This document shows positions 3,268 to 40,405 of a DNA stretch of 64,000 nt, piece after piece. How positions within the stretch are numbered: the stretch's first letter is position 1; each line of letters begins with the position of its first letter. Both the position numbers and the translations under genes were made by a program. Source of the stretch: Alphaproteobacteria bacterium (GTDB taxonomy: Bacteria; Pseudomonadota; Alphaproteobacteria; UBA6615). The notes below the pieces were generated by a model. It saw only the letters and a program-made list of their open reading frames with translations. It did no database searches and had not been told where the DNA came from. The stretch is taken from assembly GCA_965222215.1 (NCBI GenBank), contig OZ244931.1:1716546-1780545 (forward strand), written 5' to 3'.

Positions 3268-4644
3268 ATGAAAGCGATTATTTGCGGCGGCGGCCAGGTC
3301 GGCTCCAGCATTGCACGCGAACTTGCGGCGGAACGGGTCGACGTCACCGTTATCGACCAAAGTCCGGACCTGATTCGGCGGATTCGCGACACGCTGGACG
3401 TCACCGCCATGGTCGGGTTTGCCTCCCATCCGGACGTGCTTGAAGCCGCCGGCGCGCGCGATGCGGACATGATCGTGGCCGTGACGTTCGCTGACGAAGT
3501 GAACATGATCGCGTGCCAGGTCGCACACTCGCTTTTCGATGTGCCCATGAAAATCGCGCGCGTGCGGGCACAGAGTTACCGAAACCCGATCTGGTCGGAC
3601 CTGTTTTCGCGCGACCACATGCCTATCGACGTGATCATTTCGCCGGAGATCGAGGTGGCGCGCGCCATCAGTCGGCGTTTCACGGTCCCCGGCTCGTTCG
3701 AGATGATTCCACTGGCCGAAAACCGGCTCCGCCTGATCGGCGTGCGCTGCGAGAATAACTGTCCCATCCTCGACACGCCGCTACGCCAGCTCACGACGCT
3801 TTTTCCGGACCTGCGACTATCGACGATCGGAATCATCCGTGAAGGCAAGCCGATCGTGCCGACGGGCGACGACCACCTGGAAGTCGGCGACGAGGTCTAT
3901 ATTGTCGTCGACGCGGAACATGTGCCGCGCTCAATGGCGGCGTTCGGCCATGACGAACCCGAAGCGCGGCGAGTGGTCATCATCGGCGGCGGGAACATCG
4001 GCCAGAGCCTCGCGCAAGATATCGAGGAGCAATTTTCCGGCGTATCGGCTCGCCTGATCGAGCTGGACAAGGAACGCGCCCAGAGCGCGGCCCAGGCCTT
4101 GTCCAAAACCACCGTCATCAATGGCGATGCGCTCGATCCCGATATCCTCGGCGAGGCGAACATCAGCAAGACCAGTACGGTCGTGGCGGTCACCAACGAC
4201 GACGAGGTGAATATTCTCGCCTCCCTGCTGGCAAAGCGGTACGGGGCGGAACGCGCCGTAACCCTGGTCAACAGCAATACCTACAACCCGTTGCTGGCGC
4301 CGCTGGGTATCGATGTGGTCGTGAACCCGCGCGTGATTACGGTCTCGACGATCCTTCAGGTAATTCGCCGCGGACGTATCAGATCGGTGCACTCCATCGG
4401 CGAGAACTTCGGCGAGGTGATCGAGGCCGAAGCGCTGGAGACATCGAGCCTCGTCGGGCAACCCATCAAGGACGCGAAGCTGCCTCAAGGCGTGATCGTG
4501 TCGGCAGTGATCCGTGACGGTGAGGTCATCATGGTCGACAAGGAAACGGTCATCAATGTGGGTGACCGGGTGATCCTTTTCGCGACCAAGGATGCTGTCC
4601 GCAAGGTGGAGCGGATGTTTGCCGTCCGCCTTGAGTTTTTTTAG
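3268..4644 (+). CDS. trkA: Trk potassium uptake protein TrkA (tandem NAD-binding + RCK_C domains)
   Basis: Two GxGxxG Rossmann motifs (ICGGGQVG, IIGGGNIG), 458 aa, conserved position after ntrYX. Confidence 0.85.
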   Translation: MKAIICGGGQVGSSIARELAAERVDVTVIDQSPDLIRRIRDTLDVTAMVGFASHPDVLEAAGARDADMIVAVTFADEVNMIACQVAHSLFDVPMKIARVRAQSYRNPIWSDLFSRDHMPIDVIISPEIEVARAISRRFTVPGSFEMIPLAENRLRLIGVRCENNCPILDTPLRQLTTLFPDLRLSTIGIIREGKPIVPTGDDHLEVGDEVYIVVDAEHVPRSMAAFGHDEPEARRVVIIGGGNIGQSLAQDIEEQFSGVSARLIELDKERAQSAAQALSKTTVINGDALDPDILGEANISKTSTVVAVTNDDEVNILASLLAKRYGAERAVTLVNSNTYNPLLAPLGIDVVVNPRVITVSTILQVIRRGRIRSVHSIGENFGEVIEAEALETSSLVGQPIKDAKLPQGVIVSAVIRDGEVIMVDKETVINVGDRVILFATKDAVRKVERMFAVRLEFF

Positions 4645-5685: not shown

Positions 5686-5949
5686 ATGGCTGCTGAACGG
5701 TCACAGAACGTTCAGGACGTTTTCCTGAACCACATTCGCAAGAACAAAACGCCCGTGACGATCTTTCTGGTCAACGGGGTGAAACTGCAGGGTGTCGTCA
5801 CGTGGTTCGACAACTTCTGCGTTCTCTTGCGGCGCGACGCGCACTCGCAACTGGTTTACAAGCACGCGATTTCGACGGTGATGCCCTCGATGCCCGTGCA
5901 GCTGTTCGAACCGGAAACCGAAGATCACGAGGCCGAAGCGGCCGAGTAG
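5686..5949 (+). CDS. hfq: RNA chaperone Hfq
   Basis: Sm1/Sm2 motifs [26 protein letters not shown]...YKHAIST; AG-rich RBS (ggctgaggtaaaaaag) before ATG. Confidence 0.95.
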
Positions 5950-5958
5950 TCGCCGGTT

Positions 5959-7308
5959 TTGGCGTACAACGACCCGCACACCAACGGAAGCGACGGCGGT
6001 CACCAGACGCGCGCTGTCGTTCTGCAACCCGTGATACGGGACCGTGGCCCGCATTCGGCGGATCGCGACCCCGAGGTGTTGCTCGAAGAAACGGCCGGTC
6101 TTGCCCGTGCCATCGACCTCGACCTGGCCGCGTGCCGCGTGGTCACGCTCAACCGTCCCCGGCCGGCAACGCTGTTCGGCGAAGGTGTCGTCGACGAGGT
6201 GCATGACCGTGTCAAAGCCGAGGAGGCGGGCCTCGTAATCGTCGGCGGCCCGCTTTCGCCGGTGCAGCAACGCAACCTCGAACGTGCCTGGTCCTGCAAG
6301 GTGATCGACCGGACGGGGCTTATCCTCGAAATATTCGGTGCCCGCGCACGCACCCGGGAAGGCCAGCTGCAGGTTGAACTTGCAGCGTTGACCTATCAAC
6401 GCAGCCGTCTTGTGAGGTCCTGGACCCATCTTGAGCGTCAGCGCGGCGGGTTCGGATTCGTGGGCGGGCCGGGTGAAAGCCAGATCGAACTCGACCGCCG
6501 GATGATCGACGACCGGATCGCCCGGCTCAAACGTGACCTGGACCAGGTTCGCCGCACGCGGGGATTGCACAGACGGGCCCGGGAACGGGTGCCGTATCCG
6601 CTGATCGCGCTTGTCGGCTACACGAACGCGGGCAAATCGACCCTGTTCAACCGGCTGACGCGCGCCGATATCTACGCTGAAGACATGCTGTTCGCGACCC
6701 TCGATCCAACGATGCGCCAGCTCGAACTCCCGTCGGGCAGGACCGCGATTCTTTCAGATACGGTCGGCTTTATCTCTGAACTGCCCCACGACCTCGTGGC
6801 CGCGTTCCGCGCGACCCTCGAGGAAGTCGTGGCGGCGGATATCATACTTCACGTCCGCGATTGCGCCGATCCCGATACAGAAGGCCAGCGGCAGGACGTC
6901 GAGGAAATCCTGAAGAACCTCATCGCGCAGCCGGATCAGGATGACGACGGGAAGTCGCCGGTCCGTATTGAGGTCCTGAACAAGACCGATCTGCTTCCGC
7001 CTGACGAACTGGTGGAGATCCAGGCGCGCGCCGATCGATCGGCGGACATTGTCGCGCTGTCTGCCGCGAGCGGTGCTGGATGCGATGCATTGCTGACGAC
7101 GATCGATGATGCCCTTGCGGCGTTTGACTCGGTGGCCGATGTCGAAGTGGATTTGAGTGACGGCGCGACCATGGCCTGGCTTTACGAAAAAGGTGAAGTC
7201 CTGGCGCGGGAGGACGACGGCATGCAAAGCCGTTTGACCGTGCGCCTGGCACCCCGCGACCTTGCCCGTTTGCACAAACAGCAAGGCAAAGACGGTTCAT
7301 CCGCATGA
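5959..7308 (+). CDS. hflX: GTPase HflX
   Basis: G1 GYTNAGKST, G3 DTVGF, G4 NKTD; directly downstream of hfq; start codon uncertain (TTG at ORF-track start). Confidence 0.85.
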   Translation: MAYNDPHTNGSDGGHQTRAVVLQPVIRDRGPHSADRDPEVLLEETAGLARAIDLDLAACRVVTLNRPRPATLFGEGVVDEVHDRVKAEEAGLVIVGGPLSPVQQRNLERAWSCKVIDRTGLILEIFGARARTREGQLQVELAALTYQRSRLVRSWTHLERQRGGFGFVGGPGESQIELDRRMIDDRIARLKRDLDQVRRTRGLHRRARERVPYPLIALVGYTNAGKSTLFNRLTRADIYAEDMLFATLDPTMRQLELPSGRTAILSDTVGFISELPHDLVAAFRATLEEVVAADIILHVRDCADPDTEGQRQDVEEILKNLIAQPDQDDDGKSPVRIEVLNKTDLLPPDELVEIQARADRSADIVALSAASGAGCDALLTTIDDALAAFDSVADVEVDLSDGATMAWLYEKGEVLAREDDGMQSRLTVRLAPRDLARLHKQQGKDGSSA

Positions 7309-16232: not shown

Positions 16233-16574
16233 TCAGGCGGCGGATTTGATCTCGCCCTGTTCGTTGTCGACGATCACGGGTGTTTCGAAGATCGCTATTT
16301 CCGGGTCGGCGCCGCACAGCTCGCGAATGGCTTCGCGCCAGGGGCCGCCCTCGGCATAGACCTTCTCGGCCGCTTCACGGCTTTCCCATGTGTACACGCC
16401 GCCGCGAATGCCGCGCTCGCCGTCGTACAGGAAGTTCTTGCGGATCAGCCCCGCCATGCCTTCGAACTTGCCGGCGGCCGACTTAATGTGAGCGATCACG
16501 TCGTCGCGCGAAGCGCCCTGCGTCACGTTGAACTGAACGATGGCTGTAATCATCTGGGTCGGCTTCCTGCTCAC
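16233..16574 (-). CDS. YdhR-like (ABM/Dabb-fold putative monooxygenase) protein, paralog 1
   Basis: About 106-aa core; near-identical C-terminal half to paralog 2 (GGVYTWESREAAEKVYAEGGPWREAIR...PVIVDNEQGEIKSAA); likely true start is internal ATG (MITAIVQ). Confidence 0.65.
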   Translation of the reverse strand: MSRKPTQMITAIVQFNVTQGASRDDVIAHIKSAAGKFEGMAGLIRKNFLYDGERGIRGGVYTWESREAAEKVYAEGGPWREAIRELCGADPEIAIFETPVIVDNEQGEIKSAA

Positions 16575-16891
16575 GCGGCGGATTTAATCTCGCCTTGCTC
16601 GTTGTCGACGATCACCGGTGTGTCGAAGATCGTGATATCGGGGTCAACGCCGTAAAGATTGCGGATGGCCTCGCGCCAGGGTCCGCCTTCGGCATAGACC
16701 TTCTCGGCCGCTTCCCGGCTTTCCCAGGTGTAGACCCCGCCGCCGACGCCGCGCTCTCCGTCGAATACGAAGTTCTTGCGGATCAGGCCCGGCATGCCTT
16801 CGAACTTGGGCGCGACATTCTTCATGTTGGTGAACACCTCGTCGCGGGTCGTGCCGTCTTTGACTTTGAACTGGACAAGCGCGGTAATCAT
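16571..16891 (-). CDS. YdhR-like (ABM/Dabb-fold putative monooxygenase) protein, paralog 2
   Basis: Tandem duplicate of the downstream gene; stop overlaps start of paralog 1. Confidence 0.65.
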   Translation of the reverse strand: MITALVQFKVKDGTTRDEVFTNMKNVAPKFEGMPGLIRKNFVFDGERGVGGGVYTWESREAAEKVYAEGGPWREAIRNLYGVDPDITIFDTPVIVDNEQGEIKSAA

Positions 16892-29251: not shown

Positions 29252-29830
29252 ATGAGTGATTCCAACGCCGACCAGCAAGAACCCTCCATGGAGGAAATCC
29301 TCGCGTCGATCCGCCGGATTATTTCGGAGGATGGCGATGAGGAAACCGATCAGCCGCAGGAAGCGTCCGCGGAGGATGCTGATTCAGTGACCGAAGACGA
29401 CCTGGACGACGACGTGCTGGAACTGACCGATATCGTCGACGACGAACCTGATTCGGAGCCTGCACCGGAGCCCGAGCCAGAGCCTGAACCGGACCCTGAA
29501 CCCGAGCCGGACCCTGAACCCGAGCCGGACCCTGAACGCGAGCCGGAACCAGAGCCCGAGCCGGAACCAGAGCCCGTTGCGCTGACGGACGACGAAGAGA
29601 AACTTGTCTCCGATGAAGTCGAGCAGGCCAGTGCGGCGACGATGTCCGGGCTGACGGCAGCGCTCGCTGCCACGGCCAGGGTCGGTGACGGCAACAAGAC
29701 TCTCGAGGAACTTGTGAAAGAGGTGCTTCGCCCGATCCTCAAGGAGTGGCTCGATGCCAACCTTCCGGAGACGGTTGAGCGCATCGTGCGTGAAGAAGTC
29801 GAGCGCATCGCGAGCCGCGCGAAAAAGTAA
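29252..29830 (+). CDS. DUF2497-domain protein with acidic (EP)n low-complexity linker
   Basis: Conserved N-terminus [12 protein letters not shown] and C-terminus [18 protein letters not shown]; central PEPEPEPD repeats. Confidence 0.75.
29461..29578 (+). repeat. In-frame tandem 6/18-bp repeats (gagccNgaRccN) encoding (E/D-P)n within the DUF2497 gene
   Basis: gaacccgagccggaccct repeated 3 times, then gagccggaaccagagccc 2 times. Confidence 0.85.
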
Positions 29831-29918: not shown

Positions 29919-32666
29919 ATGACGACCTTAGACAAGACATATTCGCCCGCCGACATTGAGGCGCGGCTCTACCAGCGCTGGGAAGATTCCGGCGCCTTTG
30001 CCTGTGGCCGCACGCAGAACGCGACCTACACCATCGTCATTCCGCCGCCGAACGTGACCGGCAGCCTGCATATGGGCCATGCGCTCAACAACACGCTGCA
30101 GGACCTGTTGATCCGCTGGAAGCGAATGCAGGGATTTGACGTTCTCTGGCAGCCGGGTCTGGACCATGCGGGCATCGCGACGCAGATGGTGGTCGAACGC
30201 CAGCTCGCCGAAGACGGAATTGTGCTCGATCGAGGGCGGCGTCTGGAAGACCGCAACGAAAACCTGATCGGCCGGTCCGAGTTCATCGACAAGGTCTGGG
30301 AGTGGAAGGGTGAGTCCGGTGGGATGATCCTGAACCAGCTCAAGCGCCTCGGCGCGTCCTGTGACTGGTCGCGCGAGCGCTTCACCATGGACGAGGGCCT
30401 GTCGCGCGCGGTCCTGAAAGTGTTCGTGGAACTTCACAGCCAGGGCCTGATCTACAAGGACAAGCGCCTTGTGAACTGGGATCCGAAGTTACACACCGCG
30501 ATTTCCGACCTTGAAGTGGTGCAGAAGGAGGTCGACGGGCACCTCTGGTACTTCAGGTATCCGATCGAGGGCGAGGAGGGACGCTTCGTCACCGTCGCGA
30601 CGACCCGACCGGAGACAATGCTCGGGGACACGGGTGTGGCCGTGCACCCGGACGACGAACGCTGGAAAGACGTGATCGGCAAGAATGCGATCCTGCCCAT
30701 CGTCGGCCGCAAGCTGAGGATTGTCGCCGACGAGTATGCCGACCCGGAACAGGGTTCAGGTGCTGTGAAAATCACGCCGGCGCATGACTTCAACGACTTC
30801 GAGGTCGGCAAGCGCGGCGATCTCGGCATGATTAACGTATTCGATGCCTCCGCCAACGTGGCCATCGATACAGACGAATTTCGTTCGGAGACCGAGGCCG
30901 ACGCCTGGGGCGACCCCGATGCGGCCATCGCCAAGTATGACGGTCTAGACCGCTTCGAGGCGCGCAAGCTCGTCGTCGCCGAAATGGAGGAGCGCGGCCT
31001 GCTCGCCGAGATCGAGCCTCACAAGCACACGATCCCCTATGGGGATCGATCCGACGTGGTGATCGAGCCCTGGCTGACGGACCAGTGGTACGTGGATGCG
31101 GCAACGCTTGCGAAGCCGGCCGTCGAGGCCGTGGAGCAGGGTAAGACGCGCTTTGTGCCGGAGAACTGGTCGAAGACCTATTTCGAATGGCTGCGGAATA
31201 TCCAGCCCTGGTGTATCTCGCGCCAGCTCTGGTGGGGACACCAGATTCCGGCCTGGTACGGGCCTGACGACGAGGTATTCGTCGCCGAGAGCGAAGAGGC
31301 TGCCGCCGAAGCCGCGCGGGCCCACTACGGCAAGGATGTGGAACTGGTCCGCGATCCCGATGTGCTCGACACCTGGTTTTCCTCGGCGCTATGGCCGTTC
31401 TCGACCCTCGGCTGGCCCGACGAGACGCCCGAAGTGGCGCGCTACTATCCGACGAGCGTGCTGGTCACCGGCTTCGACATCATCTTCTTCTGGGTTGCCC
31501 GGATGATGATGGCGGGCATCCACTTCATGGACGAGGTGCCGTTCTCCGACGTCTACATCCATGCGCTGGTCCGCGACGAGAAGGGCGCCAAGATGTCCAA
31601 GTCGAAGGGCAACGTCATGGACCCGCTCGAACTCATCGACGAGTACGGGGCCGACGCGCTGCGCTTCACGCTGACGGCCATGGCCGCCATGGGCCGCGAC
31701 ATCAAGCTGGCCACGGCGCGGGTGCAGGGTTACCGGAACTTCGGCACCAAGCTGTGGAACGCCGCGCGCTTCTGTCAGATGAACGAATGCGCCGCGCCGG
31801 CGGATTTCGATCCGGCGGCCGTGAATCTCACCCTGAACAAATGGATCGTCGGCGGCGTCGCCGAGACGGCCGCGGCGGTGAACACGGCGCTGGAGGAGTA
31901 CAAGTTCGACCAGGCCGCCGGCGGCATCTACCAGTTCACCTGGCATACCTTCTGCGACTGGTACGTGGAGTTCGCCAAGCCGGTCCTGCAGGGCGACGAC
32001 GCCGCGGCAAAAGCCGAAACCCGCGCGACCGCAGGCTGGGTGCTGCAGCAGATCCTCAAAATTCTGCACCCGTTCATGCCGTTCATCACCGAGGAACTCT
32101 GGGAGAGCTTCGGCGATGGGGCCGAAGAGGGAAAAGGCATGCTGATCCACGCGGCGTGGCCGGCCAGCGATATCGCGCCGGTCGCCCCGGACGCGAAGGA
32201 GGAACTCGACTGGGTGGTGCGTTTCATCACCGAGGTGCGCACCGTGCGCAACGAGTTGAACGTGCCGGCGGGCGCGAAGATCCCGGCACTCCTCAACGGG
32301 GCGTCCGACGAGACGACGGCGCGCCTCGACCGCAACCGGGACCAGATCCTGCGCCTCGCGCGGCTCGAGGATATCGCGCGCGACGGCGACGTGCCGACCG
32401 GCGCGGTCCAGACCGTGATCGACGAGGCGAGCCTCATCCTGCCGCTCGCCGACGTGATCGACCTCGACGCCGAGCGTGCGCGCCTGTCGAAGGAAATCGA
32501 CAAGCTCGACAAGGAAATCACCGGCTACGACAGGAAACTCGCCAACGAGAAGTTCACGTCGAAGGCGCCGGCGGAGGTGGTCGAGGAGCAGCGGACCCGC
32601 CGCGCCGACGCCACCGAGACCAAGGCGAAGCTGGAAAGTGCGCTGGAACGCCTGAGCGCGGCGTAG
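29919..32666 (+). CDS. valS: Valine--tRNA ligase
   Basis: HIGH (HMGH), KMSKS motifs, 915 aa, C-terminal coiled coil. Confidence 0.95.
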   Translation: MTTLDKTYSPADIEARLYQRWEDSGAFACGRTQNATYTIVIPPPNVTGSLHMGHALNNTLQDLLIRWKRMQGFDVLWQPGLDHAGIATQMVVERQLAEDGIVLDRGRRLEDRNENLIGRSEFIDKVWEWKGESGGMILNQLKRLGASCDWSRERFTMDEGLSRAVLKVFVELHSQGLIYKDKRLVNWDPKLHTAISDLEVVQKEVDGHLWYFRYPIEGEEGRFVTVATTRPETMLGDTGVAVHPDDERWKDVIGKNAILPIVGRKLRIVADEYADPEQGSGAVKITPAHDFNDFEVGKRGDLGMINVFDASANVAIDTDEFRSETEADAWGDPDAAIAKYDGLDRFEARKLVVAEMEERGLLAEIEPHKHTIPYGDRSDVVIEPWLTDQWYVDAATLAKPAVEAVEQGKTRFVPENWSKTYFEWLRNIQPWCISRQLWWGHQIPAWYGPDDEVFVAESEEAAAEAARAHYGKDVELVRDPDVLDTWFSSALWPFSTLGWPDETPEVARYYPTSVLVTGFDIIFFWVARMMMAGIHFMDEVPFSDVYIHALVRDEKGAKMSKSKGNVMDPLELIDEYGADALRFTLTAMAAMGRDIKLATARVQGYRNFGTKLWNAARFCQMNECAAPADFDPAAVNLTLNKWIVGGVAETAAAVNTALEEYKFDQAAGGIYQFTWHTFCDWYVEFAKPVLQGDDAAAKAETRATAGWVLQQILKILHPFMPFITEELWESFGDGAEEGKGMLIHAAWPASDIAPVAPDAKEELDWVVRFITEVRTVRNELNVPAGAKIPALLNGASDETTARLDRNRDQILRLARLEDIARDGDVPTGAVQTVIDEASLILPLADVIDLDAERARLSKEIDKLDKEITGYDRKLANEKFTSKAPAEVVEEQRTRRADATETKAKLESALERLSAA

Positions 32667-32670
32667 CCGA

Positions 32671-32748
32671 AGTCGTCATACCCGGACTTGATCCGGGCAC
32701 CTCGCCCCGGTCCGTGCTGAGATGGCCGGGTCAAGCCCGGCCATGACA
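32671..32748. repeat. Intergenic palindromic repeat units (GTCGTCAT-anchored hairpins), locus 1
   Basis: gtcgtcatacCCGGACTTGATCCGGgca and GGCCGGGTCAAGCCCGGCCatgacac. Confidence 0.6.
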
Positions 32749-32798
32749 CGGATGTGGCGGTGTGGTGAAGTGGCGCGGTCGCAATATGAGAGGCTGTC

Positions 32799-33410
32799 AT
32801 GTCCCGTATCCCCGCGCTGAAACGCGAAGACCTGCCCGAGCTGGAGCCCTATTTCGAACGCTCGATGGAGCGGATGGGCTTCGTCACCAACGCCCAGTTC
32901 ACGATGGCGCACCGCCCGCCGATCTTCAAAGCCTTCGTCGAGATGGCGAGCGCCGTATTCACGCAATACGGCAATGTCACGCCGGGTCTGAAGGCGCTCG
33001 TCGGCAACGTCGCCAGCCGGACGGCAGGTTGCCAGTACTGCGTTTCGCACACGGCGTCGAACGCGATGCAACCGGGCTACGACATCGACGAAGCGAAGGT
33101 GGCCGCAGTCTGGGAGTACGAGACAAGCGATCTCTTTACCGAGGCCGAGCGCGCGGCGCTGGAATTCGCCCAGTGCGCGGCGGCGGTGCCGAACCTCGTA
33201 GAAGACCGCCATATCGAGAAGCTCCGCGAACATTTCACCGACGCAGAGATCGTGGAGATCAACGCGGTCGTCGCCTTCTACGGGTTCCTCAACCGCTGGA
33301 ACGACAGTATGGCGACGGACCTGGAAGCGATCCCGGTCGACGTCGGCAACCGCCTGCTCGCCGACACCGGCTGGACTCCGGGCAAACACAACGTCGAGGC
33401 GGCAGAGTAG
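32799..33410 (+). CDS. Carboxymuconolactone decarboxylase (AhpD-like peroxidase-related) family protein
   Basis: CxxC-containing CMD motif (AGCQYCVSHT), 203 aa. Confidence 0.75.
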   Translation: MSRIPALKREDLPELEPYFERSMERMGFVTNAQFTMAHRPPIFKAFVEMASAVFTQYGNVTPGLKALVGNVASRTAGCQYCVSHTASNAMQPGYDIDEAKVAAVWEYETSDLFTEAERAALEFAQCAAAVPNLVEDRHIEKLREHFTDAEIVEINAVVAFYGFLNRWNDSMATDLEAIPVDVGNRLLADTGWTPGKHNVEAAE

Positions 33411-33424
33411 CGGCCAACCCATAA

Positions 33425-33552
33425 TCGTCGTCCCTGCGAAGGCAGGGACCCATTAACTCAGGCAGTTGCCCGGTCAAGCATCGGCGACAATGAACCCCGG
33501 CCTTCGCCGGGGTGACGAATGATGTTTGTTGAGGCAACGCCGGGGTGACGAC
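33425..33552. repeat. Intergenic palindromic repeat units (GTCGTC / GGTGACGA-anchored hairpins), locus 2
   Basis: tcgtcgtCCCTGCGAAGGCAGGGacc; CCCCGGCCTTCGCCGGGGtgacgaat; cgCCGGGGtgacgac. Confidence 0.6.
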
Positions 33553-33624
33553 TGCGGGATGCGGGAGTAATCTCCGCCTCAGCAAACAATTCTTGTGACC
33601 CGAAATTTCGGGAAGGGGACTACC

Positions 33625-35361
33625 ATGGACGGCAACACACCCGGCGGCGAATGGGATAAATCCAGGCTTCCGAGCCGACATGTGTCGGTCGGCAACACGT
33701 CGGCGCCGCATCGCGCGTTCTACTACGCGATGGGCATGACCGACGAAGAGATCAAACAACCCTTCGTCGGCGTCGTCACCACCTGGAACGAGGCCGCGCC
33801 GTGCAACATCGCCCTGTCGCGCCAGGCCCAGGCCGCCAAGACCGGCGTGCGCGAGGCCGGCGGCACGCCGCGCGAGTTCACGACCATCACCGTGACCGAC
33901 GGCATCGCCATGGGCCATGACGGCATGCGCTCGTCGCTGGTCAGCCGCGAGGTCATCGCGGATTCGACCGAGCTGACGGTGCGCGGCCATTCCTACGACG
34001 CGCTCGTCGGGCTGGCGGGCTGCGACAAGTCGCTGCCTGGCCTGATGATGGCGATGCTGCGCCTCAACATCCCCTCGGTGTTCATGTACGGCGGCTCGAT
34101 CCTGCCGGGCACGTTCAAGGGCAACGACGTCACCATCATCGACGTGTTCGAGGGCGTGGGCGCGAACGCGGCGGGCAACATGTCCGACGAGGACCTCAAG
34201 GAACTCGAATGCGCGGCCTGCCCGTCGGCGGGCGCGTGCGGCGGCCAGTTCACGGCCAACACCATGGCCTGCGTGTCCGAGGCGATCGGCCTCGCGATTC
34301 CCCATTCTGCCGGCGCGCCGGCGGTCTACGAGAACCGCGACGAATATGCGGCCGCCAGCGGCAGGGCGGTGATGGAGCTGGTGAAGTCCCAGCTTCGCCC
34401 GCGCGACATCGCGACCCGCAAGGCGTTCGAGAACGCGGCGGCCATCGTGGCCGCGACCGGCGGCTCGACCAACGCCGGCCTGCACCTGCCGGCCATGGCG
34501 GCGGAAGCGGGGATCGAGTTCGACCTGATGGACGTGTGCGAGATCTTCCGCAAAACGCCCTACATCGCCGACCTGAAGCCGGGCGGGCGCTACGTCGCCA
34601 AGGACCTCTACGAGGTCGGCGGCGTCGGGGTCGTCATCAGGGAACTGCTCGACGGCGGCTTCATGCACGAAGACTGCATGACCGTGACCGGCAAGACCAT
34701 CGGCGAAAACTACGGCAGCGTCGATTTCCCGACCGGGCAGGACGTGGTCCGCAGGATCGACAACCCGATCTCAAAGACCGGAGGCGTGGTCGGCCTGATG
34801 GGCAACCTCGCGCCGCAGGGCGCCATCGTGAAAATCGCCGGGCTGGAAAAGCTGGTGTTCACCGGCCCGGCCCGCGTGTTCGAGCGTGAGGAGGACTGTC
34901 TGCAGGCCGTGCTGAACAGGCAGTACGAGGAAGGCGACGTGCTCGTCATCCGCAACGAGGGCCCGAAGGGCGGCCCGGGCATGCGCGAGATGCTGTCCAC
35001 CACGGGCGCGCTCTACGGCCAGGGTATGGGCGACAAGGTCGCGCTGATCACCGACGGGCGGTTCTCCGGCGGCACGCGCGGCTTCTGCATCGGCCATGTC
35101 GGCCCGGAGGCGGCGGTCGGCGGTCCCATCGGGCTGCTCCAGAACGGCGACATGATCACCATCGACGCCGAGAAGGGCACGCTGGAGGTGGATCTGTCCG
35201 ACGACGAGCTGGAGGCGCGGCGCGCCAAGTGGAAGCCGCTGAAGACCAACTACCAGGCCGGCACGCTCTGGAAATACGCGCAGACGGTGGGCGACGCCCG
35301 CTACGGCGCGATCACACATCCGGGAGCGAAGGCGGAAACGCATATGTATGCGGACCTGTAA
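33625..35361 (+). CDS. ilvD: Dihydroxy-acid dehydratase (IlvD/EDD family)
   Basis: Fe-S cluster Cys motifs ([12 protein letters not shown]), DGIAMGH, 578 aa; start ATG 33625 with GGAAGGGG RBS; could be a paralogous sugar-acid dehydratase. Confidence 0.8.
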
Positions 35362-35394
35362 CCGCTAGAATTTCCGCAACGACGGGAGGCCGCC

Positions 35395-35781
35395 ATGCTG
35401 CGCCGTGTTCTTGAAGGGTCGGGACTGATCTTTTTGATCGTGCTGGCCGCGTACCGGATCGACATCGGGTTCATGATTCCGCTGCTCGCCATTGCGGGCG
35501 TGATCGCCTTCACCGTTTGGCGCATCCGGAACCTGTGGCGGCGCTACCAGGCGCATCAGGTGGCGCGGCGCGCGCCGGTGAACGCGGCCGTCGGGAACGA
35601 GATGCTGGCCCTGCGCGGACAGCAGCACGGGCGCGGCGCGGAACTTACCTTCTGGACCGGCTTCATGATGGGCGGCGCGATGATCACCGACACGCCGGTC
35701 TCGGCGGGCGAGGGCAGCGAGATGGGCGTCGGCGCGGCGGAAGGCGGCATGGATATCGGCGGCGGGTTCGGCGACCTGTAG
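35395..35781 (+). CDS. Hypothetical membrane protein with Gly-rich C-terminal tail
   Basis: Two N-terminal TM helices; C-terminal GxGxxG-like glycine-rich segment; 4-nt gap to TPM-domain gene. Confidence 0.5.
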   Translation: MLRRVLEGSGLIFLIVLAAYRIDIGFMIPLLAIAGVIAFTVWRIRNLWRRYQAHQVARRAPVNAAVGNEMLALRGQQHGRGAELTFWTGFMMGGAMITDTPVSAGEGSEMGVGAAEGGMDIGGGFGDL

Positions 35782-35785
35782 GTCG

Positions 35786-36406
35786 GTGAGGCGGCTTCTC
35801 ACAGCGGCGGTCTTCGCGGCCTTTCTTTCAGTTTCGCCGAACGTGGCGATTGCGCAGTTCCCCGAACTTGACGGAAACGTCGTCGACGCGGCCGACCTGC
35901 TGACCCCCGAAGAGGAACGGCGGATCGCCGGGCAACTCGAAGCGCAGTCGGCCGAGACGGGACGGCGGATCGTGGTCGCGACGGTGTCCTCGCTCGGCGG
36001 GCGCTCGATCGAGCTCTACGCCGCGCAGCTTGCCGGCCACTGGAATATCGAAAGCTGGTCCGGCGACGCGGGGGCGATCCTGCTGGTGGCCGACGACGAA
36101 CGCCGGGTGCGGTTCGAGTTCGGTCCCCCGGTGCGCGGCACCATGACCGACGTGCGCTCCAGCGGCGTCGTCCAGCGGGTCGTCCTGCCCGCGTTCCGGG
36201 CCGGCGAGTTCGCCATCGGGATCGAGGCGGGGCTGACGGAACTCTCGCTGATGCTCGACGAGGGCGTCGCGCAGGCGAGCGACGAGGCCCGGCACCTGAC
36301 CGAAATCCTCGTCGACAAGCGCTTCCTGGTGCCCGTGGGGCTCGTGATTATCCTGCTGGGCTACTGCGTCTTTCGCGAAGGCGCATGCAGCGGGGAGCAG
36401 GCCTGA
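35786..36406 (+). CDS. TPM-domain (TLP18.3/Psb32/MOLO-1 family) protein with signal peptide and C-terminal TM anchor
   Basis: Signal peptide, TPM core (LLTPEEERRIAGQL...GILLVADDERRVRFEFG), C-terminal TM. Confidence 0.65.
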   Translation: MRRLLTAAVFAAFLSVSPNVAIAQFPELDGNVVDAADLLTPEEERRIAGQLEAQSAETGRRIVVATVSSLGGRSIELYAAQLAGHWNIESWSGDAGAILLVADDERRVRFEFGPPVRGTMTDVRSSGVVQRVVLPAFRAGEFAIGIEAGLTELSLMLDEGVAQASDEARHLTEILVDKRFLVPVGLVIILLGYCVFREGACSGEQA

Positions 36407-36442
36407 GTGCCGCGCGCCGTCACGCCCGGGCCTGACGCTTTG

Positions 36443-36629
36443 GGGCCGCGGCAACGGCGGCCACGACTCCCGTCATTCCGGCGAAAGCAGGAATCCATTA
36501 TCGCCGGTGCCGGACCAGGCAGGTGACTGAGTCAATGGACCCCTGCTTTCGCAGGGGTGACGAGCGTGAGACAGGAGGAACCAAAGCTCTCTGTTCCGTC
36601 ATGCCCGGACCAGGTCCGCGTATGACAGA
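36443..36629. repeat. Intergenic palindromic repeat units (GTCGTCA / GGTGACGA-anchored hairpins), locus 3 (at least 4 units)
   Basis: GGCCGCggcaacgGCGGCCacgac; cgtcattCCGGCGAAAGCAGGAAtcc; CCCCTGCTTTCGCAGGGGtgacgagc; gtcatgCCCGGACCAGGTCCGcgtatgac. Confidence 0.6.
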
Positions 36630-36730
36630 TACCTGATGGCGCCCGAGTCATTGCGAGGCGCGAAGCGACGCGGCAATCCAGCATCTCTGCTCTGGATTGC
36701 TTCGCCTCCGGCTCGCAATGACGGACCGGA

Positions 36731-37054
36731 TTATTGCACCGTCGATTTCTTGGTCGGCACGATGCGCTGGACCTGGATCTTTTCCCGGTCGATCAGCTTG
36801 CCGACATGCGGCGCGATGTCGTTCTTCCACTCGTCGCTCTCGTAAACAGCCTTGTAGAGCCGCTCGCGCTCCTTCTCGGTGTTGAACCGGCGCATCCAGA
36901 TGTACACCGAGCTGTCGGTCTCGTGCTTGAACGAGCCGCAGATCACCATGCCCTTCGAGACCTGGAAGGGGATGACGGTGCCCTCCATGAACTTGAGCCA
37001 CTCGTCCATCTTGCCGCGGCGGATGTGGTACTGCCGCAATTCGTAAAACGCCAT
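36731..37054 (-). CDS. NIPSNAP-family protein
   Basis: Dimeric alpha/beta-barrel NIPSNAP signature (YELRQY...), 107 aa. Confidence 0.75.
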   Translation of the reverse strand: MAFYELRQYHIRRGKMDEWLKFMEGTVIPFQVSKGMVICGSFKHETDSSVYIWMRRFNTEKERERLYKAVYESDEWKNDIAPHVGKLIDREKIQVQRIVPTKKSTVQ

Positions 37055-37080
37055 TTTGTGTTCCCCTGGTGAGTTCTTGG

Positions 37081-38157
37081 TCAGTCGTCGTTCTCGTCGA
37101 CGCTCACGTCGTTTTCGCCGGAAGCCTTCAGCTTTCCGTAGTGGGTATAGGACCGCTTCATGTACCAGTCGAAATATTCCCAGTAGGACATGGGCTCTTC
37201 TTTCGGCGGGTTATCCGGCCCGACGCAGGTCGGGATGAAGTCCCCCGGTGTGTCGAAGCCCGGATTGACGAAGCAGGCGAACGAATAGCGATCGTTCTCG
37301 ACCGGCGGCACGACCCGGTGCGGCGTCGCGCGGTAGCGCCAGTTGGTCCAGCGCTCCAGGAAGTAGCCCATGTTCACCATGATGCCGCCCTCGGGCAGTT
37401 CCGGGAAAAACCAGGTGTCGTCGGTATCGAGGATCTGGATGCCTTCCTCGTTGGCGGGCGGCAGGAAGGTGTTGAACCCGGTATCGCAATGGGCGTTCGA
37501 GCCGAGTTCCCCGTCCTCGAGGTCGTTCTTCGGCGGGTACTTCGCGACGCGGAAGTAGGTGTAGCTCTCGCGGAAATACGGTTCGAAGAAATCGGCCGGC
37601 ATGTCGAGCGAGCGCGCCCAGACCGGCAGCAGCGATTTCCCGAGCTCGGTGATGCGCGCCATGTAGTTCTGCGCCGTCGCCTTGAAGCCGGGCACGATGT
37701 CCTCATCCAGCCACGGCGTCGGCCCGTAGAAGCGCTTGCCTTCCAGAACACCCGGATGGTCCTCTGGAAAGTCGGTGGCGAGCACCAGGCATTCGACGGT
37801 GTTGAGTTTCTTCGAGTTGTGGAACTTCGAATGGGTGGTCAGCCCCCCGCGCGCCGGGACGTAGCCCTTCTGGTCATGCGTGACCCGCACAGAGAGCTTC
37901 GTTTCCAACGGCAGGTCGTGGAACTGCTTCGCGGCGTCATGCATGCCCTGGATGAGTTCCGGTTCCAGCCCGTGGTTCACGATGCAGAGAAAACCGGTGC
38001 CTTCCCAGACATCGCGCCATTGTCCCGCGATTTCCTCGACGGCGGCCATATCTCCCTGCCGGGCCTTGCCGACATCGACGACGGGCAGGGCGCGGTGGGG
38101 CGCCGCACGCACGGCGCGGGCGAATTCGGATTCAGACGTGTCGTGAGCCAGTGACAT
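37081..38157 (-). CDS. 2-oxoglutarate/Fe(II)-dependent oxygenase (isopenicillin N synthase family)
   Basis: HxD...H facial triad context (HCDTG ... HRV) and RxS; 358 aa. Confidence 0.75.
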   Translation of the reverse strand: MSLAHDTSESEFARAVRAAPHRALPVVDVGKARQGDMAAVEEIAGQWRDVWEGTGFLCIVNHGLEPELIQGMHDAAKQFHDLPLETKLSVRVTHDQKGYVPARGGLTTHSKFHNSKKLNTVECLVLATDFPEDHPGVLEGKRFYGPTPWLDEDIVPGFKATAQNYMARITELGKSLLPVWARSLDMPADFFEPYFRESYTYFRVAKYPPKNDLEDGELGSNAHCDTGFNTFLPPANEEGIQILDTDDTWFFPELPEGGIMVNMGYFLERWTNWRYRATPHRVVPPVENDRYSFACFVNPGFDTPGDFIPTCVGPDNPPKEEPMSYWEYFDWYMKRSYTHYGKLKASGENDVSVDENDD

Positions 38158-38188
38158 CAGGACCTCCAGTTTCGAAGACTATAGCAGG

Positions 38189-38572
38189 TCAGCCGGATAC
38201 CGTCGGCGCGATGACAAGATACACGAAGCTCGTCACCAGCCCGATCAGGTAGAACGGCGCTAGCGCGCCGACAATGGTCGGGATCATGACCCGCAAGACC
38301 TGGTTTTTCGGTCGGGTCGGGTCCGTTTTCCGGAACGCGCACCGCAGCACCGGGTAGGTCATGAAGACCAGGAAGATCAGGCCGATGTTGGTAAGCAGGC
38401 CACGGAAGAATGCGGCGACGGGCGGCGGGTTGTCGGGCCAGATCAGGAAAATGATCCCGCCGGCGCCGAAGATCCAGAAACCGGCGGCGTAGGTGAGCAG
38501 CGCGACCCGGAACCCGCGGTCGCCGAGATAGACTTCCAGGAGAAAACGCCAGAAATCAGCAAGCGCGCGCAT
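38189..38572 (-). CDS. Hypothetical membrane protein (127 aa, 3-4 TM)
   Basis: Hydrophobicity pattern; no recognised domain. Confidence 0.45.
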   Translation of the reverse strand: MRALADFWRFLLEVYLGDRGFRVALLTYAAGFWIFGAGGIIFLIWPDNPPPVAAFFRGLLTNIGLIFLVFMTYPVLRCAFRKTDPTRPKNQVLRVMIPTIVGALAPFYLIGLVTSFVYLVIAPTVSG

Positions 38573-38756
38573 GTGTCAGGCCACGCCTGGAGAGGGAGAG
38601 AAGGTACACGACGCGCGGGTGAGAACACCGTCATTGCGTGCCCAGAGGGCGAAGCAATTCAGAGCGGACATGTCCCGGCACTGGGTTGCTTCGTCGCCTT
38701 CGGCTCCTCGCAAAGACGTGGAAAATCGGGGGTCGGGTCTCATGGTCTGCCGCCGT

Positions 38757-39539
38757 TCAATCCAGCTCGCACCAGACCGGTGTGTGGTCCGACGCCTTTT
38801 TCTTGCCGCGCGGGTCGCTGTCGATCTCGCAGGCGGTCAGGCGGTCCGTGGCCTGCGGCGACAGCAACAGGTGGTCGATCCGGATGCCGTTGTCTTTCTG
38901 CCAGGCGCCGCCCTGATAATCCCAGAACGAGTAGACATGGCTCTCGGTGTGCAGGCTGCGCCACGCCTCGGTGTAGCCGAGATTGAGGATGGTGCGGAAT
39001 TTTGCTCGGGTCTCAGGCAGGAACAACGCGTCGTCGGCCCATCCGGCCGGGTCGTGCACGTCCTCGTCGGCCGGGATCACGTTGTAGTCGCCGCCCAGCA
39101 CGACAGGTTCTTCGGTTTTCAACAGGTGCGCGGCGTGGTCGGCCAGATGGCCCATCCATCCCAGCTTGTAGTCGTATTTCTCGCCGGGGGCCGGGTTGCC
39201 GTTGGGCAGGTAGATCGACGCGACCCGCACGCCGCCATCACCGCCGGGATCGACCCATGCCTCGATATAGCGGGCCTGGTCGTCACCGTCGTTGCCGGGC
39301 AGGCCGCGCACCACGTCGTCGAGCGGGTATTTCGAAAGGATCGCGACGCCGTTGTAGCTCTTCTGCCCGTGAACGGCGCAGTTGTAGCCGCGCTCCTCTA
39401 TTTCCATCGCCGGAAAGCCGTCGTCGACGGTCTTGATCTCCTGCAACAGGACGACATCCGGCTGCGCGTCGTCGAGCCATTCGAGGACGTTGGGCAGGCG
39501 TGCCTTGATCGAGTTCACGTTCCAGGTGGCGATTTTCAT
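38757..39539 (-). CDS. xth: Exodeoxyribonuclease III
   Basis: MKIATWNVNSIKARL N-terminus, EEP-family catalytic motifs, 260 aa. Confidence 0.9.
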   Translation of the reverse strand: MKIATWNVNSIKARLPNVLEWLDDAQPDVVLLQEIKTVDDGFPAMEIEERGYNCAVHGQKSYNGVAILSKYPLDDVVRGLPGNDGDDQARYIEAWVDPGGDGGVRVASIYLPNGNPAPGEKYDYKLGWMGHLADHAAHLLKTEEPVVLGGDYNVIPADEDVHDPAGWADDALFLPETRAKFRTILNLGYTEAWRSLHTESHVYSFWDYQGGAWQKDNGIRIDHLLLSPQATDRLTACEIDSDPRGKKKASDHTPVWCELD

Positions 39540-39635
39540 GGGGGCTCTTATGCCTGAAAAAACAGCCGGGGTGAACGTTGGACAAACTGAATCCGGGGCT
39601 TGCCACCATCATGTTCGCAAGGCCACGATACGGCG

Positions 39636-40025
39636 ATGTCCGCCAGACCTGTCATCGAAGACGCTGTTGCGATCGTGCCGGTTCGCAATATCCCGGCCAC
39701 CGTGGATTTCTATGCTGACGTTCTGGGCTTCGAGCGGCGTTTCATGGCCGACGACAACAGTTTTGCGATCGTCGTGCACGGAGAGGCGGCCATTCACTTC
39801 GTCGCCACGGACAGTGACGAAGCCCTTCACGCGACTGCGAACAATATCTCGATTTACCTGTGGGTGCGGGAGATCGACGCGCTATACGAGAGCCTTCATC
39901 CGGCACTGGAGAAGCTGCCCGACGGGCGCGTGCGCGCGCCGTTCGACCAGCCTTACGGCATGCGTGAATTCCACGTGAAGGACCCGGACGGGTGCCTGCT
40001 TCTATTCGGGGAAGATTCGGGCTAG
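39636..40025 (+). CDS. VOC-family (glyoxalase/bleomycin-resistance) protein
   Basis: VOC bab-bb module (IVPVRNIPATVDFYADVLGFE); start ATG 39636. Confidence 0.65.
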   Translation: MSARPVIEDAVAIVPVRNIPATVDFYADVLGFERRFMADDNSFAIVVHGEAAIHFVATDSDEALHATANNISIYLWVREIDALYESLHPALEKLPDGRVRAPFDQPYGMREFHVKDPDGCLLLFGEDSG

Positions 40026-40405
40026 TAGACCGAGAAGGACGACCCGCAGCCACAGGATGACGTGGCGTTCGGGTTTTCCAGTGTGAAGTGGCTGCCGCCG
40101 AGGGATTCGACGTAATTCAGCACGCTGCCGTTGATGAACTCCAGCGACGCCTCGTCGACCACGACCTTCACGCCGTCTGTCTCGAAGGTCCGGTCGTCCT
40201 CATTCGCCTTGTCGTCGAAATCGAAGGCGTAGGTGAAGCCCGAGCAGCCGCCGCCGTTCACGGTAATGCGCAGCATCTGGCTGCTGTCGCCCTCTGCGGC
40301 AATCAGGCCGGACAGTTTCTCGACCGCGCTTTCGCTCAGGCCGACGCCAGTATGCGCGGCGGATTGCGAACCGGAGTCGCCGGAGATGGTCGTTGCGTCA
40401 CTCAT
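40022..40405 (-). CDS. erpA: Iron-sulfur cluster insertion protein (HesB/IscA/ErpA family)
   Basis: A-type carrier motif: Cys in GGGCSGF plus C-terminal SSCGCGSSF. Confidence 0.85.
   Translation of the reverse strand: MSDATTISGDSGSQSAAHTGVGLSESAVEKLSGLIAAEGDSSQMLRITVNGGGCSGFTYAFDFDDKANEDDRTFETDGVKVVVDEASLEFINGSVLNYVESLGGSHFTLENPNATSSCGCGSSFSVY

Follow-up and report, generated by a model that had tools for sequence, protein, structure and literature searches.

CGTC-tagged extragenic palindromes of an uncultured marine alphaproteobacterial lineage and their likely relation to Ssn-type GIY-YIG nucleases

Repetitive extragenic palindromes (REPs) that carry an unpaired CGTC head, with TGTC and CCTC as variants, form a superfamily which includes the families CGTC-1 and CGTC-3/4 (Di Nocera, De Gregorio & Rocco 2013, BMC Genomics 14:522, PMC3733652). 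Units of CGTC-1 have an 8-bp stem and a 4-nt loop and those of CGTC-2 to 4 a 9-bp stem and a 5-nt loop. Unlike the GTAG REPs, CGTC repeats were not found to flank genes for REP-associated tyrosine transposases (RAYTs) in any species, and it was suggested that the CGTC families are perhaps heading towards extinction (PMC3733652). A separate line of work concerns the single-domain GIY-YIG nucleases of the Ssn family (Chenal et al. 2025, Nat Commun 16:2388, PMC11893778). Ssn binds the Neisseria NTS repeat (CGTCATTCCCGCGMAVGCGGGAATCYRG) solely as single-stranded DNA (ssDNA) and cuts a few nucleotides upstream of the repeat; the GTC head matters for cleavage and the C that follows the palindrome for binding. 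RNA is not bound by SsnA of N. meningitidis. Genes for Ssn are flanked by 'Ssn-related motifs' (SRMs) in many phyla, and an Ssn homologue is present in 81% of the genomes with more than 200 SRMs (PMC11893778). Along with NTS/SRM and Ssn, the Neisseria dRS3/NIME repeats are among the closest known systems to the elements considered here, which are hairpin repeats in a 64,000-nt stretch (the window) of contig OZ244931.1, from an alphaproteobacterium of the UBA6615 lineage. These repeats add new members, from an uncultured marine alphaproteobacterial lineage, to a repeat class that was described in 2013 and whose partner enzyme was identified in 2025.

Twelve or so hairpin units lie in a total of 854 nt over four neighbouring intergenic spacers (32.67-38.72 kb; Table 1), and the strict patterns given below find none in the ~6.7 kb of non-coding and ~56 kb of coding DNA that make up the rest of the window. 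We think it likely that these units are CGTC-tagged REPs, of the class that has also been described as NTS/SRM, and that each is a DNA hairpin recognised as ssDNA by a cognate Ssn nuclease. The hairpin repeats noted at this locus in the original prediction, which was made from the sequence alone, are confirmed, at the positions where it had placed them. They share a common anatomy, which is a short GC-rich hairpin with an unpaired (T)CGTC head on its 5' side and a tail that has C first. (T)CGTC with a following A or G makes up the conserved tag, and the head is CGTC in nine of the window units, TGTC in two (counting the second head of the palindrome at 36597-36627) and AGTC in one. The heptamer GTCGTCA, which had been proposed as the anchor of repeats at three loci, is not specific, since it occurs 19 times in the window and mostly within genes; repeats were found at all three of those loci, and the spacers that carry them number four.

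What had been taken for one family with variant stems of 6-9 bp proved to be three merged sub-families. Type 1 consists of CGTC, an 8-bp stem, a 4-nt GAAR loop and a CCA(TT) tail; type 2 of (C/T)GTC, a 9-bp stem, a 5-nt loop and a CTC tail; and type 3 of (C/A)GTC, a 5-bp outer stem (ATTGC...GCAAT), a large structured loop and a CCAG tail. A loose definition (CGTC plus any stem of 8-10 bp with at most one mismatch) gave 14 matches versus 3.9 in shuffles and was so unspecific that strict patterns were used instead. The 28-nt degenerate pattern for type 1, allowing up to three mismatches, matched four times and exactly at the four units (0.00 expected), the type-2 pattern matched four times at three sites (0.24 expected by chance), and the type-3 pattern matched once (0.00 expected). 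Stems are perfect in three of the four type-1 units, which are of the 8/4 form (8-bp stem, 4-nt loop), and carry a single mismatch in the other; the tail is CCA in three and TCA in one, the first stem pair is A-T in three of the four, and the second is T-A in two. The 6-bp core hairpin of the type-2 unit at 32674-32703 is present in the DNA fold. Units occur in both orientations relative to transcription. The earlier description of the locus as clustered, REP-like extragenic palindromes was right. Its claim that nothing similar lies elsewhere in the window needs some amendment: the strict patterns match only in this cluster, and the type-3 pair at 36646-36723, which runs past the end of the region first delimited, and the decayed pair at 38629-38718 had been overlooked.

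Nearly all units form inverted pairs with their heads outside (HH), of which the window has four to five. Two of these pairs, elements A and B, are of particular interest, as 33425-33517 is 77% complementary to 36471-36563 over 93 nt, with the 34-nt spacer included. Because the likeness spans the spacer as well as the hairpins, A and B are two copies of one 94-nt composite element. The 34-nt spacer is kept across 24 aligned dimers (20 loci plus the window), and all 43 distinct canonical dimers, from 33 loci, are heterodimers whose orientation is fixed relative to the asymmetric spacer, with ACCCCTGC as the most frequent stem on the left (26 of the 43) and ATTCCTGC as the most frequent on the right (15 of the 43). 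It follows that the whole pair is what gets copied. Copies end sharply at TCGTC...GACGA, and a weak C-rich/G-rich symmetry continues for about 10 nt beyond these ends. When folded as ssDNA, element A (z -4.2), element B (z -6.2) and the type-3 pair at 36646-36723 (z -6.7) did far better than shuffles, whereas the decayed type-3 pair at 38629-38718 folded no better than its shuffles (z -1.1).

The 94-nt element is dispersed in multiple copies in related genomes. A 26-nt search pattern, which runs from the 3' half of a unit through the start of the spacer, matched 32 metagenome stretches and 30 genome stretches; 20 of the latter, with 22 copies between them, are on separate contigs of the metagenome-assembled genome (MAG) Alphaproteobacteria bacterium HXMU1420-4, so that this MAG holds at least 22 copies of the element on 20 contigs. 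Element B is nearly identical to the consensus of these copies. Other matches were to Rhodospirillaceae MAGs and to Sphingomonas; a match in a Thermoplasmatota MAG (L026 in our numbering of retrieved loci) has no hairpin and was set aside as chance. Type 2 was found again in HXMU1420-4 and type 3 in locus L071. At three loci (L002, ~1290-1360; L011, ~1800-1870; L014, ~1930-2000) the right-hand unit of the 94-nt element has an insert of ~35 nt replacing its 4-nt loop. The insert contains a small hairpin of its own, GCGCGAAGCGCG, so that the unit is a nested large-loop form similar to those described in Bradyrhizobium.

The window's repeat family tightly flanks ssn-type genes in related contigs. 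Genes for GIY-YIG (PF01541) proteins of ~95 aa adjoin units at eight of the retrieved loci (L005, L009, L013, L015, L069, L071, L072 and L073), and do so on both sides in six. In L013 the 95-aa open reading frame (ORF) is bracketed by two type-2 units, of the type seen at 32719-32748, and its homologues in L005, L009, L015 and L069, which match PF01541 with E from 1e-12 to 1e-15, adjoin type-1 pairs; units stand on both sides of the gene in L005, L009, L013 and L069 and not in L015. As a test free of ascertainment, L071-L073 were picked by Ssn homology alone, from 2951 homologues at E <= 1e-10, and units were present within ~60 nt of the GIY-YIG gene in all three. In L071, ssn has HH pairs of the 94-nt family seen in the window on either side, and a type-3 pair (3491-3580) lies beside the ssn cluster; L072 has a perfect pair of the 9/5 form (9-bp stem, 5-nt loop), heads outside, on both sides of the gene; and in L073 the gene has units on one side, an HH pair immediately upstream. 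NCBIfam and PDB gave no specific family for the GIY-YIG proteins, and the only solved relatives were distant UPF0213 proteins. Binding and cleavage of the window repeats by a cognate enzyme would be expected to proceed as they do with the Neisseria and Wolbachia enzymes.

HXMU1420-4 encodes two Ssn-type paralogues, at L005 1052-1336 and L013 4097-4384, which are 58% identical. Units of the 8/4 form flank one of them and units of the 9/5 form the other, suggesting paralogue-specific repeat types within one genome.

The window units resemble the CGTC REPs in having an unpaired CGTC or TGTC head and an 8/4 or 9/5 stem-loop, in the 3-nt CCA tail of types 1 and 3 (the CTC tail of type 2 keeps the C), in being mostly HH dimers with conserved spacers (the described range is 20-100 bp), and in their position between co-directional or convergent genes of an alphaproteobacterial host with no adjacent transposase. 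Type 3, with its 5-bp outer stem and large loop, is similar to the large-loop variants of CGTC-1 in Bradyrhizobium. There are also differences: half of the type-1 units have C-G at the second stem position, where A-T is 'almost invariable' in the CGTC REPs, all dimers of the 94-nt family are heterodimers while homodimers are said to predominate in CGTC-1, the tails of type 2 are CTC rather than CCA, and the host lineage lies outside the surveyed species. With NTS/SRM the window units share the NTS architecture, preserving both the nucleotides of the head and the C that follows the palindrome, and type 2 is like NTSvar in its 9-bp stem and 5-nt loop. The repeat-ssn-repeat arrangement, in which the window's family brackets ~95-aa single-domain GIY-YIG genes in related contigs, is a further likeness. 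Judged by this shared architecture, NTS itself is probably a CGTC-1 unit, and the CGTC REPs, for which no dedicated enzyme was thought to exist, would appear to form one class with the SRM/NTS repeats that Ssn targets. This links two literatures that are apparently not cross-cited; 'Di Nocera' is not mentioned in the text of Chenal et al. 2025. The belief that the family was uncharacterised was mistaken as regards the family (Di Nocera 2013; Chenal 2025) and is true only in the trivial sense that the host belongs to an uncultured lineage.

The mechanism proposed here is that a unit folds alone when its DNA becomes single-stranded, as during replication, repair or DNA uptake, and that a small, single-domain cognate nuclease of the Ssn GIY-YIG type recognises both the sequence and the shape of the folded unit. 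The nuclease would then nick the strand of that unit, a few nucleotides 5' of its head, and such a nick would affect ssDNA recombination and probably also how the repeats spread and turn over. In the 8/4 type, copying involves the entire 94-nt heterodimer, including the asymmetric spacer.

The own hairpin of each unit is maintained by compensatory changes. Across the 24 aligned dimers, which are related copies so that each count refers to sequences rather than to independent events, the 8-bp hairpins were 97.1% paired, compared with 46% or less in slid controls, and contained 40 double-change cells versus 8.8 in shuffles, with none of 500 shuffles as high. Position 1 is A-U in 16 of 24 and 21 of 24, and position 2 of the left unit is mostly C-G. 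An independent case is provided by the orthologous element A in L059, where the right unit shows a compensatory G:C to T:A change relative to the window. A single long hairpin between the left and right units was rejected as the conserved structure of the dimer, as it is 88.6% paired versus 88.2% in shuffles (101 of 500 as high) and shows no covariation in excess of shuffles.

Only one of the 384 cells in the own-hairpin stems is a G-U pair, and such near-strict Watson-Crick pairing fits a constraint on DNA, on either strand, better than one on a single strand of RNA. This bears on the alternative that the main role of the units is at the RNA level, where hairpins at 3' ends would shield mRNA against exonucleases, cause partial termination or give rise to small RNAs (sRNAs). 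The hairpins are stable, every one of the four spacers is 3' of at least one gene and lies between genes that are co-directional or convergent, and an RNA role has been documented for some GTAG REPs (PMC3733652). However, the units occur in both orientations relative to transcription, and the protein that binds NTS in N. meningitidis does not bind RNA (PMC11893778). No T-run terminators, nor any other intrinsic terminators or promoters, were found at the units. Rfam identified only two tRNAs in the window, a permissive search of 32600-38800 gave nothing better than E = 2.7, and the units themselves had no match even at E up to 10. The suggestion that they are mRNA-stabilising or terminator-like structures is therefore without support, the possibility that they are parts of known sRNA genes found no Rfam match in its favour, and we regard a mainly RNA-level role as improbable.

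Comparison with syntenic relatives shows that units have been gained and lost. The closest homologues of IlvD, at most 94% identical, come from uncultured Rhodospirillaceae/Alphaproteobacteria MAGs and from marine metagenomes, and the gene order PCMT-OEP-DUF2497-valS-...-ilvD-...-NIPSNAP-dioxygenases-Exo_endo_phos-Fe-S-HD-argS is kept. No units were found in the 21.7 kb of each of L031-L034. The closest relative, L035 (94% IlvD identity), has a type-1 pair in its valS/ilvD spacer; its TPM/NIPSNAP spacer is 38 nt long and has a plain hairpin and no units, versus 324 nt and five units in the window. L036-38 have a decayed copy with a CGTA head and broken stems. In metagenome relatives with 84-88% nucleotide identity (L043, L051, L056, L059, L061 and L066), element A is retained at the orthologous place, the TPM/NIPSNAP spacer carries a different pair, of the 9/5 type, and CMD has shrunk to a remnant of ~60 nt. 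The truncated unit at 33538-33552 is likewise at its orthologous place in metagenome relatives, L059 included. Some copies have been vertically inherited for long and other spacers turn over, which is the usual behaviour of REP families.

The same relatives provided several further observations. The CMD-family gene between valS and ilvD is polymorphic, being intact in the window (32799-33410), a stop-containing remnant in L033 (9657-9980), a ~60-nt 3' remnant in L059 (6907-6985) and its relatives, and absent in L031, L035 and L036. Three relatives (L031 15486-16550, L032 15035-16099, L033 13962-15026) have two DIOX_N/2OG-Fe(II) oxygenase genes with an ORF of ~130 aa between them. The window has only one such gene (37081-38157), and where the second would be there is the 184-nt spacer (38573-38756) that holds the decayed type-3 pair, which may reflect a repeat-associated deletion. 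A conserved hairpin-like motif, CCGCCGCGKTTATGCTCCGCGGCG, is found ~50-70 nt 5' of ilvD in L031 (9925-9950), L032 (9935-9960), L035 (7665-7690) and L036 (9925-9950). This motif, in whose place the window has GCGGGAGTAATCTCCGC (33560-33576), may serve ilvD as a leader or in its regulation. Between two NIPSNAP genes of L031 (13797-13916) are other palindromic repeats, CTCACCCTGAGCTTGTCGAAGGGCGAGG and CAATCCTCACGCTTCGACAGGCTCAGCATGAGGATTG, which are unrelated to the CGTC types of the window.

Several points weigh against the recognition of the window repeats by a cognate Ssn nuclease. Unlike the NTS/SRM systems, the window contains no ssn gene (tblastn; Pfam on 40 ORFs); the cognate nuclease in this organism is therefore a prediction, and we infer that it is encoded elsewhere in the genome. 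The published SRM string, HGTCWYN(0-2)YYVSBRHN(0-5)WNVSBRGN(0-2)RNCYNB, matches one of the ~12 window units (32674-32704; 0.62 expected by chance) and misses the others because their stems carry T:A at position 6 (CCTGC...GCAGG). It also misses the units that flank ssn in L005 and is therefore narrower than the biological class. The best match to the Neisseria NTS consensus, the unit at 36471-36498, differs from it at 3 of 28 positions, more than the single mismatch allowed. In addition, the covariation was counted on related copies, element A has been inherited vertically across ~12-16% nucleotide divergence, which gives no sign of current mobility, and the RNA-level role considered above, although it has a low probability, counts on the same side.

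Some of these points are also what would be expected if the repeats were inert relics, left to decay after an earlier expansion, functionless in this genome and lacking an active partner enzyme. The lack of ssn in the window and the vertical inheritance of element A fit such a history, as do the decayed or truncated copies (33538-33552; 38629-38718; the L036 copy with its CGTA head) and the suggestion that CGTC families are on their way to extinction (PMC3733652). On the other hand, compensatory changes keep the hairpins intact, the TPM/NIPSNAP spacer does not have the content that it has in the closest relatives, a sign of recent turnover, and Ssn homologues accompany most genomes rich in SRMs (PMC11893778). 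We consider it unlikely that the repeats are only relics. Mobilisation of classical REP or REPIN elements by a RAYT, as the original prediction proposed, would account for short, GC-rich, tagged intergenic hairpins in REPIN-like inverted doublets with a conserved spacer, but is very doubtful since the heads are all CGTC, TGTC or AGTC and none GTAG or GTRG, no RAYT gene flanked by CGTC repeats was found in any species (PMC3733652), neither a motif scan of the six-frame ORFs of the window for HUH plus Tyr nor Pfam on 40 ORFs for Y1_Tnp gave a candidate, and the genes bracketed by these units in related contigs are GIY-YIG.

The Ssn nuclease and its CGTC-tagged repeats may nevertheless be compared with RAYTs and REPINs (Nunvar 2010; Bertels & Rainey 2011). 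In both cases an inverted hairpin doublet with a conserved spacer is replicated as a unit, the element is non-autonomous, and a single-copy enzyme gene is flanked by repeats. The head of REPINs is GTAG and their enzyme an HUH/Y1 transposase, whereas here the head is CGTC and the enzyme GIY-YIG, and unlike in REPINs there is no covariation in the pairing between the two units of the 94-nt element. One tentative possibility, which we put forward as a speculation, is that the 94-nt heterodimer, whose asymmetric spacer is fixed and whose C-rich/G-rich outer flanks are weakly conserved, might resemble a REPIN in being a mobile, non-autonomous element that is copied whole and mobilised in trans by an Ssn GIY-YIG nuclease. 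It would then be the GIY-YIG counterpart of RAYT/REPIN, with distinct Ssn paralogues for the 8/4 and 9/5 types in one genome. Chenal et al. 2025 remarked on an IS-like architecture without demonstrating mobility (PMC11893778).

For the window itself the significance of these repeats is small, as they are ordinary members of a known repeat class. Genome surveys that use the SRM string will undercount the class, since the sub-family with CCTGC stems is missed although it flanks ssn genes. This uncultured marine alphaproteobacterium is predicted to encode one Ssn nuclease or more, probably two, whose ssDNA specificities would be new, and these may be of interest to developers of enzyme tools.

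Table 1. Repeat units, composite elements and the intergenic spacers that carry them (window coordinates).
Feature	Position	Strand	Description
Spacer 1	valS (29919-32666) / CMD (32799-33410)		Carries the type-2 pair
Type-2 unit	32674-32703	+	CGTC head, 9-position stem ATACCCGGA/TCCGGGCAC (2 mismatches), loop CTTGA, tail CTC; left half of head-outside pair
Type-2 unit	32719-32748	-	TGTC head, perfect 9-bp stem ATGGCCGGG, loop CTTGA, tail CTC; right half of pair 32674-32748
Spacer 2	CMD / ilvD (ilvD start most likely ATG 33625)		Carries element A and the truncated type-1 unit
Composite element A	33425-33518	+	94 nt, HH heterodimer of two type-1 units with conserved asymmetric spacer between
Type-1 units of element A	33426-33453; 33490-33517	+; -	CGTC, 8-bp stem, GAAG loop, CCA/TCA tail
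Truncated type-1 unit	33538-33552	-	GTCGTCACCCCGGCG, head and 5' arm only
Spacer 3	TPM (35786-36406) / NIPSNAP (36731-37054, minus strand)		Carries element B, the double-headed palindrome and the type-3 pair
Composite element B	36470-36563	-	94 nt, family of element A in opposite orientation
Type-1 unit of element B	36471-36498	+	Stem ATTCCGGC/GCAGGAAT, 1 mismatch
Type-1 unit of element B	36535-36562	-	Stem ACCCCTGC, loop GAAA
Double-headed type-2 palindrome	36597-36627		CGTC-ATGCCCGGA-CCAGG-TCCGCGTAT-GACA; stem mismatches
Type-3 head-outside pair	36646-36723 (units 36646-36680; 36692-36723)	+; -	Extends past the end of the region first delimited
Spacer 4	127-aa ORF / Exo_endo_phos (38573-38756)		184 nt; carries the decayed type-3 pair
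Decayed type-3 pair	38629-38718 (units 38629-38662; 38681-38718)	+; -	In the fourth spacer

The identities of CMD, TPM and NIPSNAP were confirmed with Pfam and those of valS and ilvD through the annotated syntenic loci of relatives. The genes of 29919-40405, the ~10 kb that hold all of the repeats, have a third-position GC of 0.84-0.93, except for the ORF at 39600-40025 (0.72), while in the rest of the window it is ~0.72-0.80 in most genes. Within the DUF2497 gene (29252-29830), a tandem 12/18-nt repeat at 29444-29591 encodes a Glu/Pro-rich (EPEP...) stretch of low complexity. Two tandem ydhR-like genes (putative mono-oxygenases) at 16233-16891 share 81% identity over 300 nt, which points to a local gene duplication. 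Finally, hfq is located at 5686-5949 (Pfam Hfq, E = 1e-32), and the ~800 nt on its 3' side (5950-6753) appear to be coding, probably for hflX.

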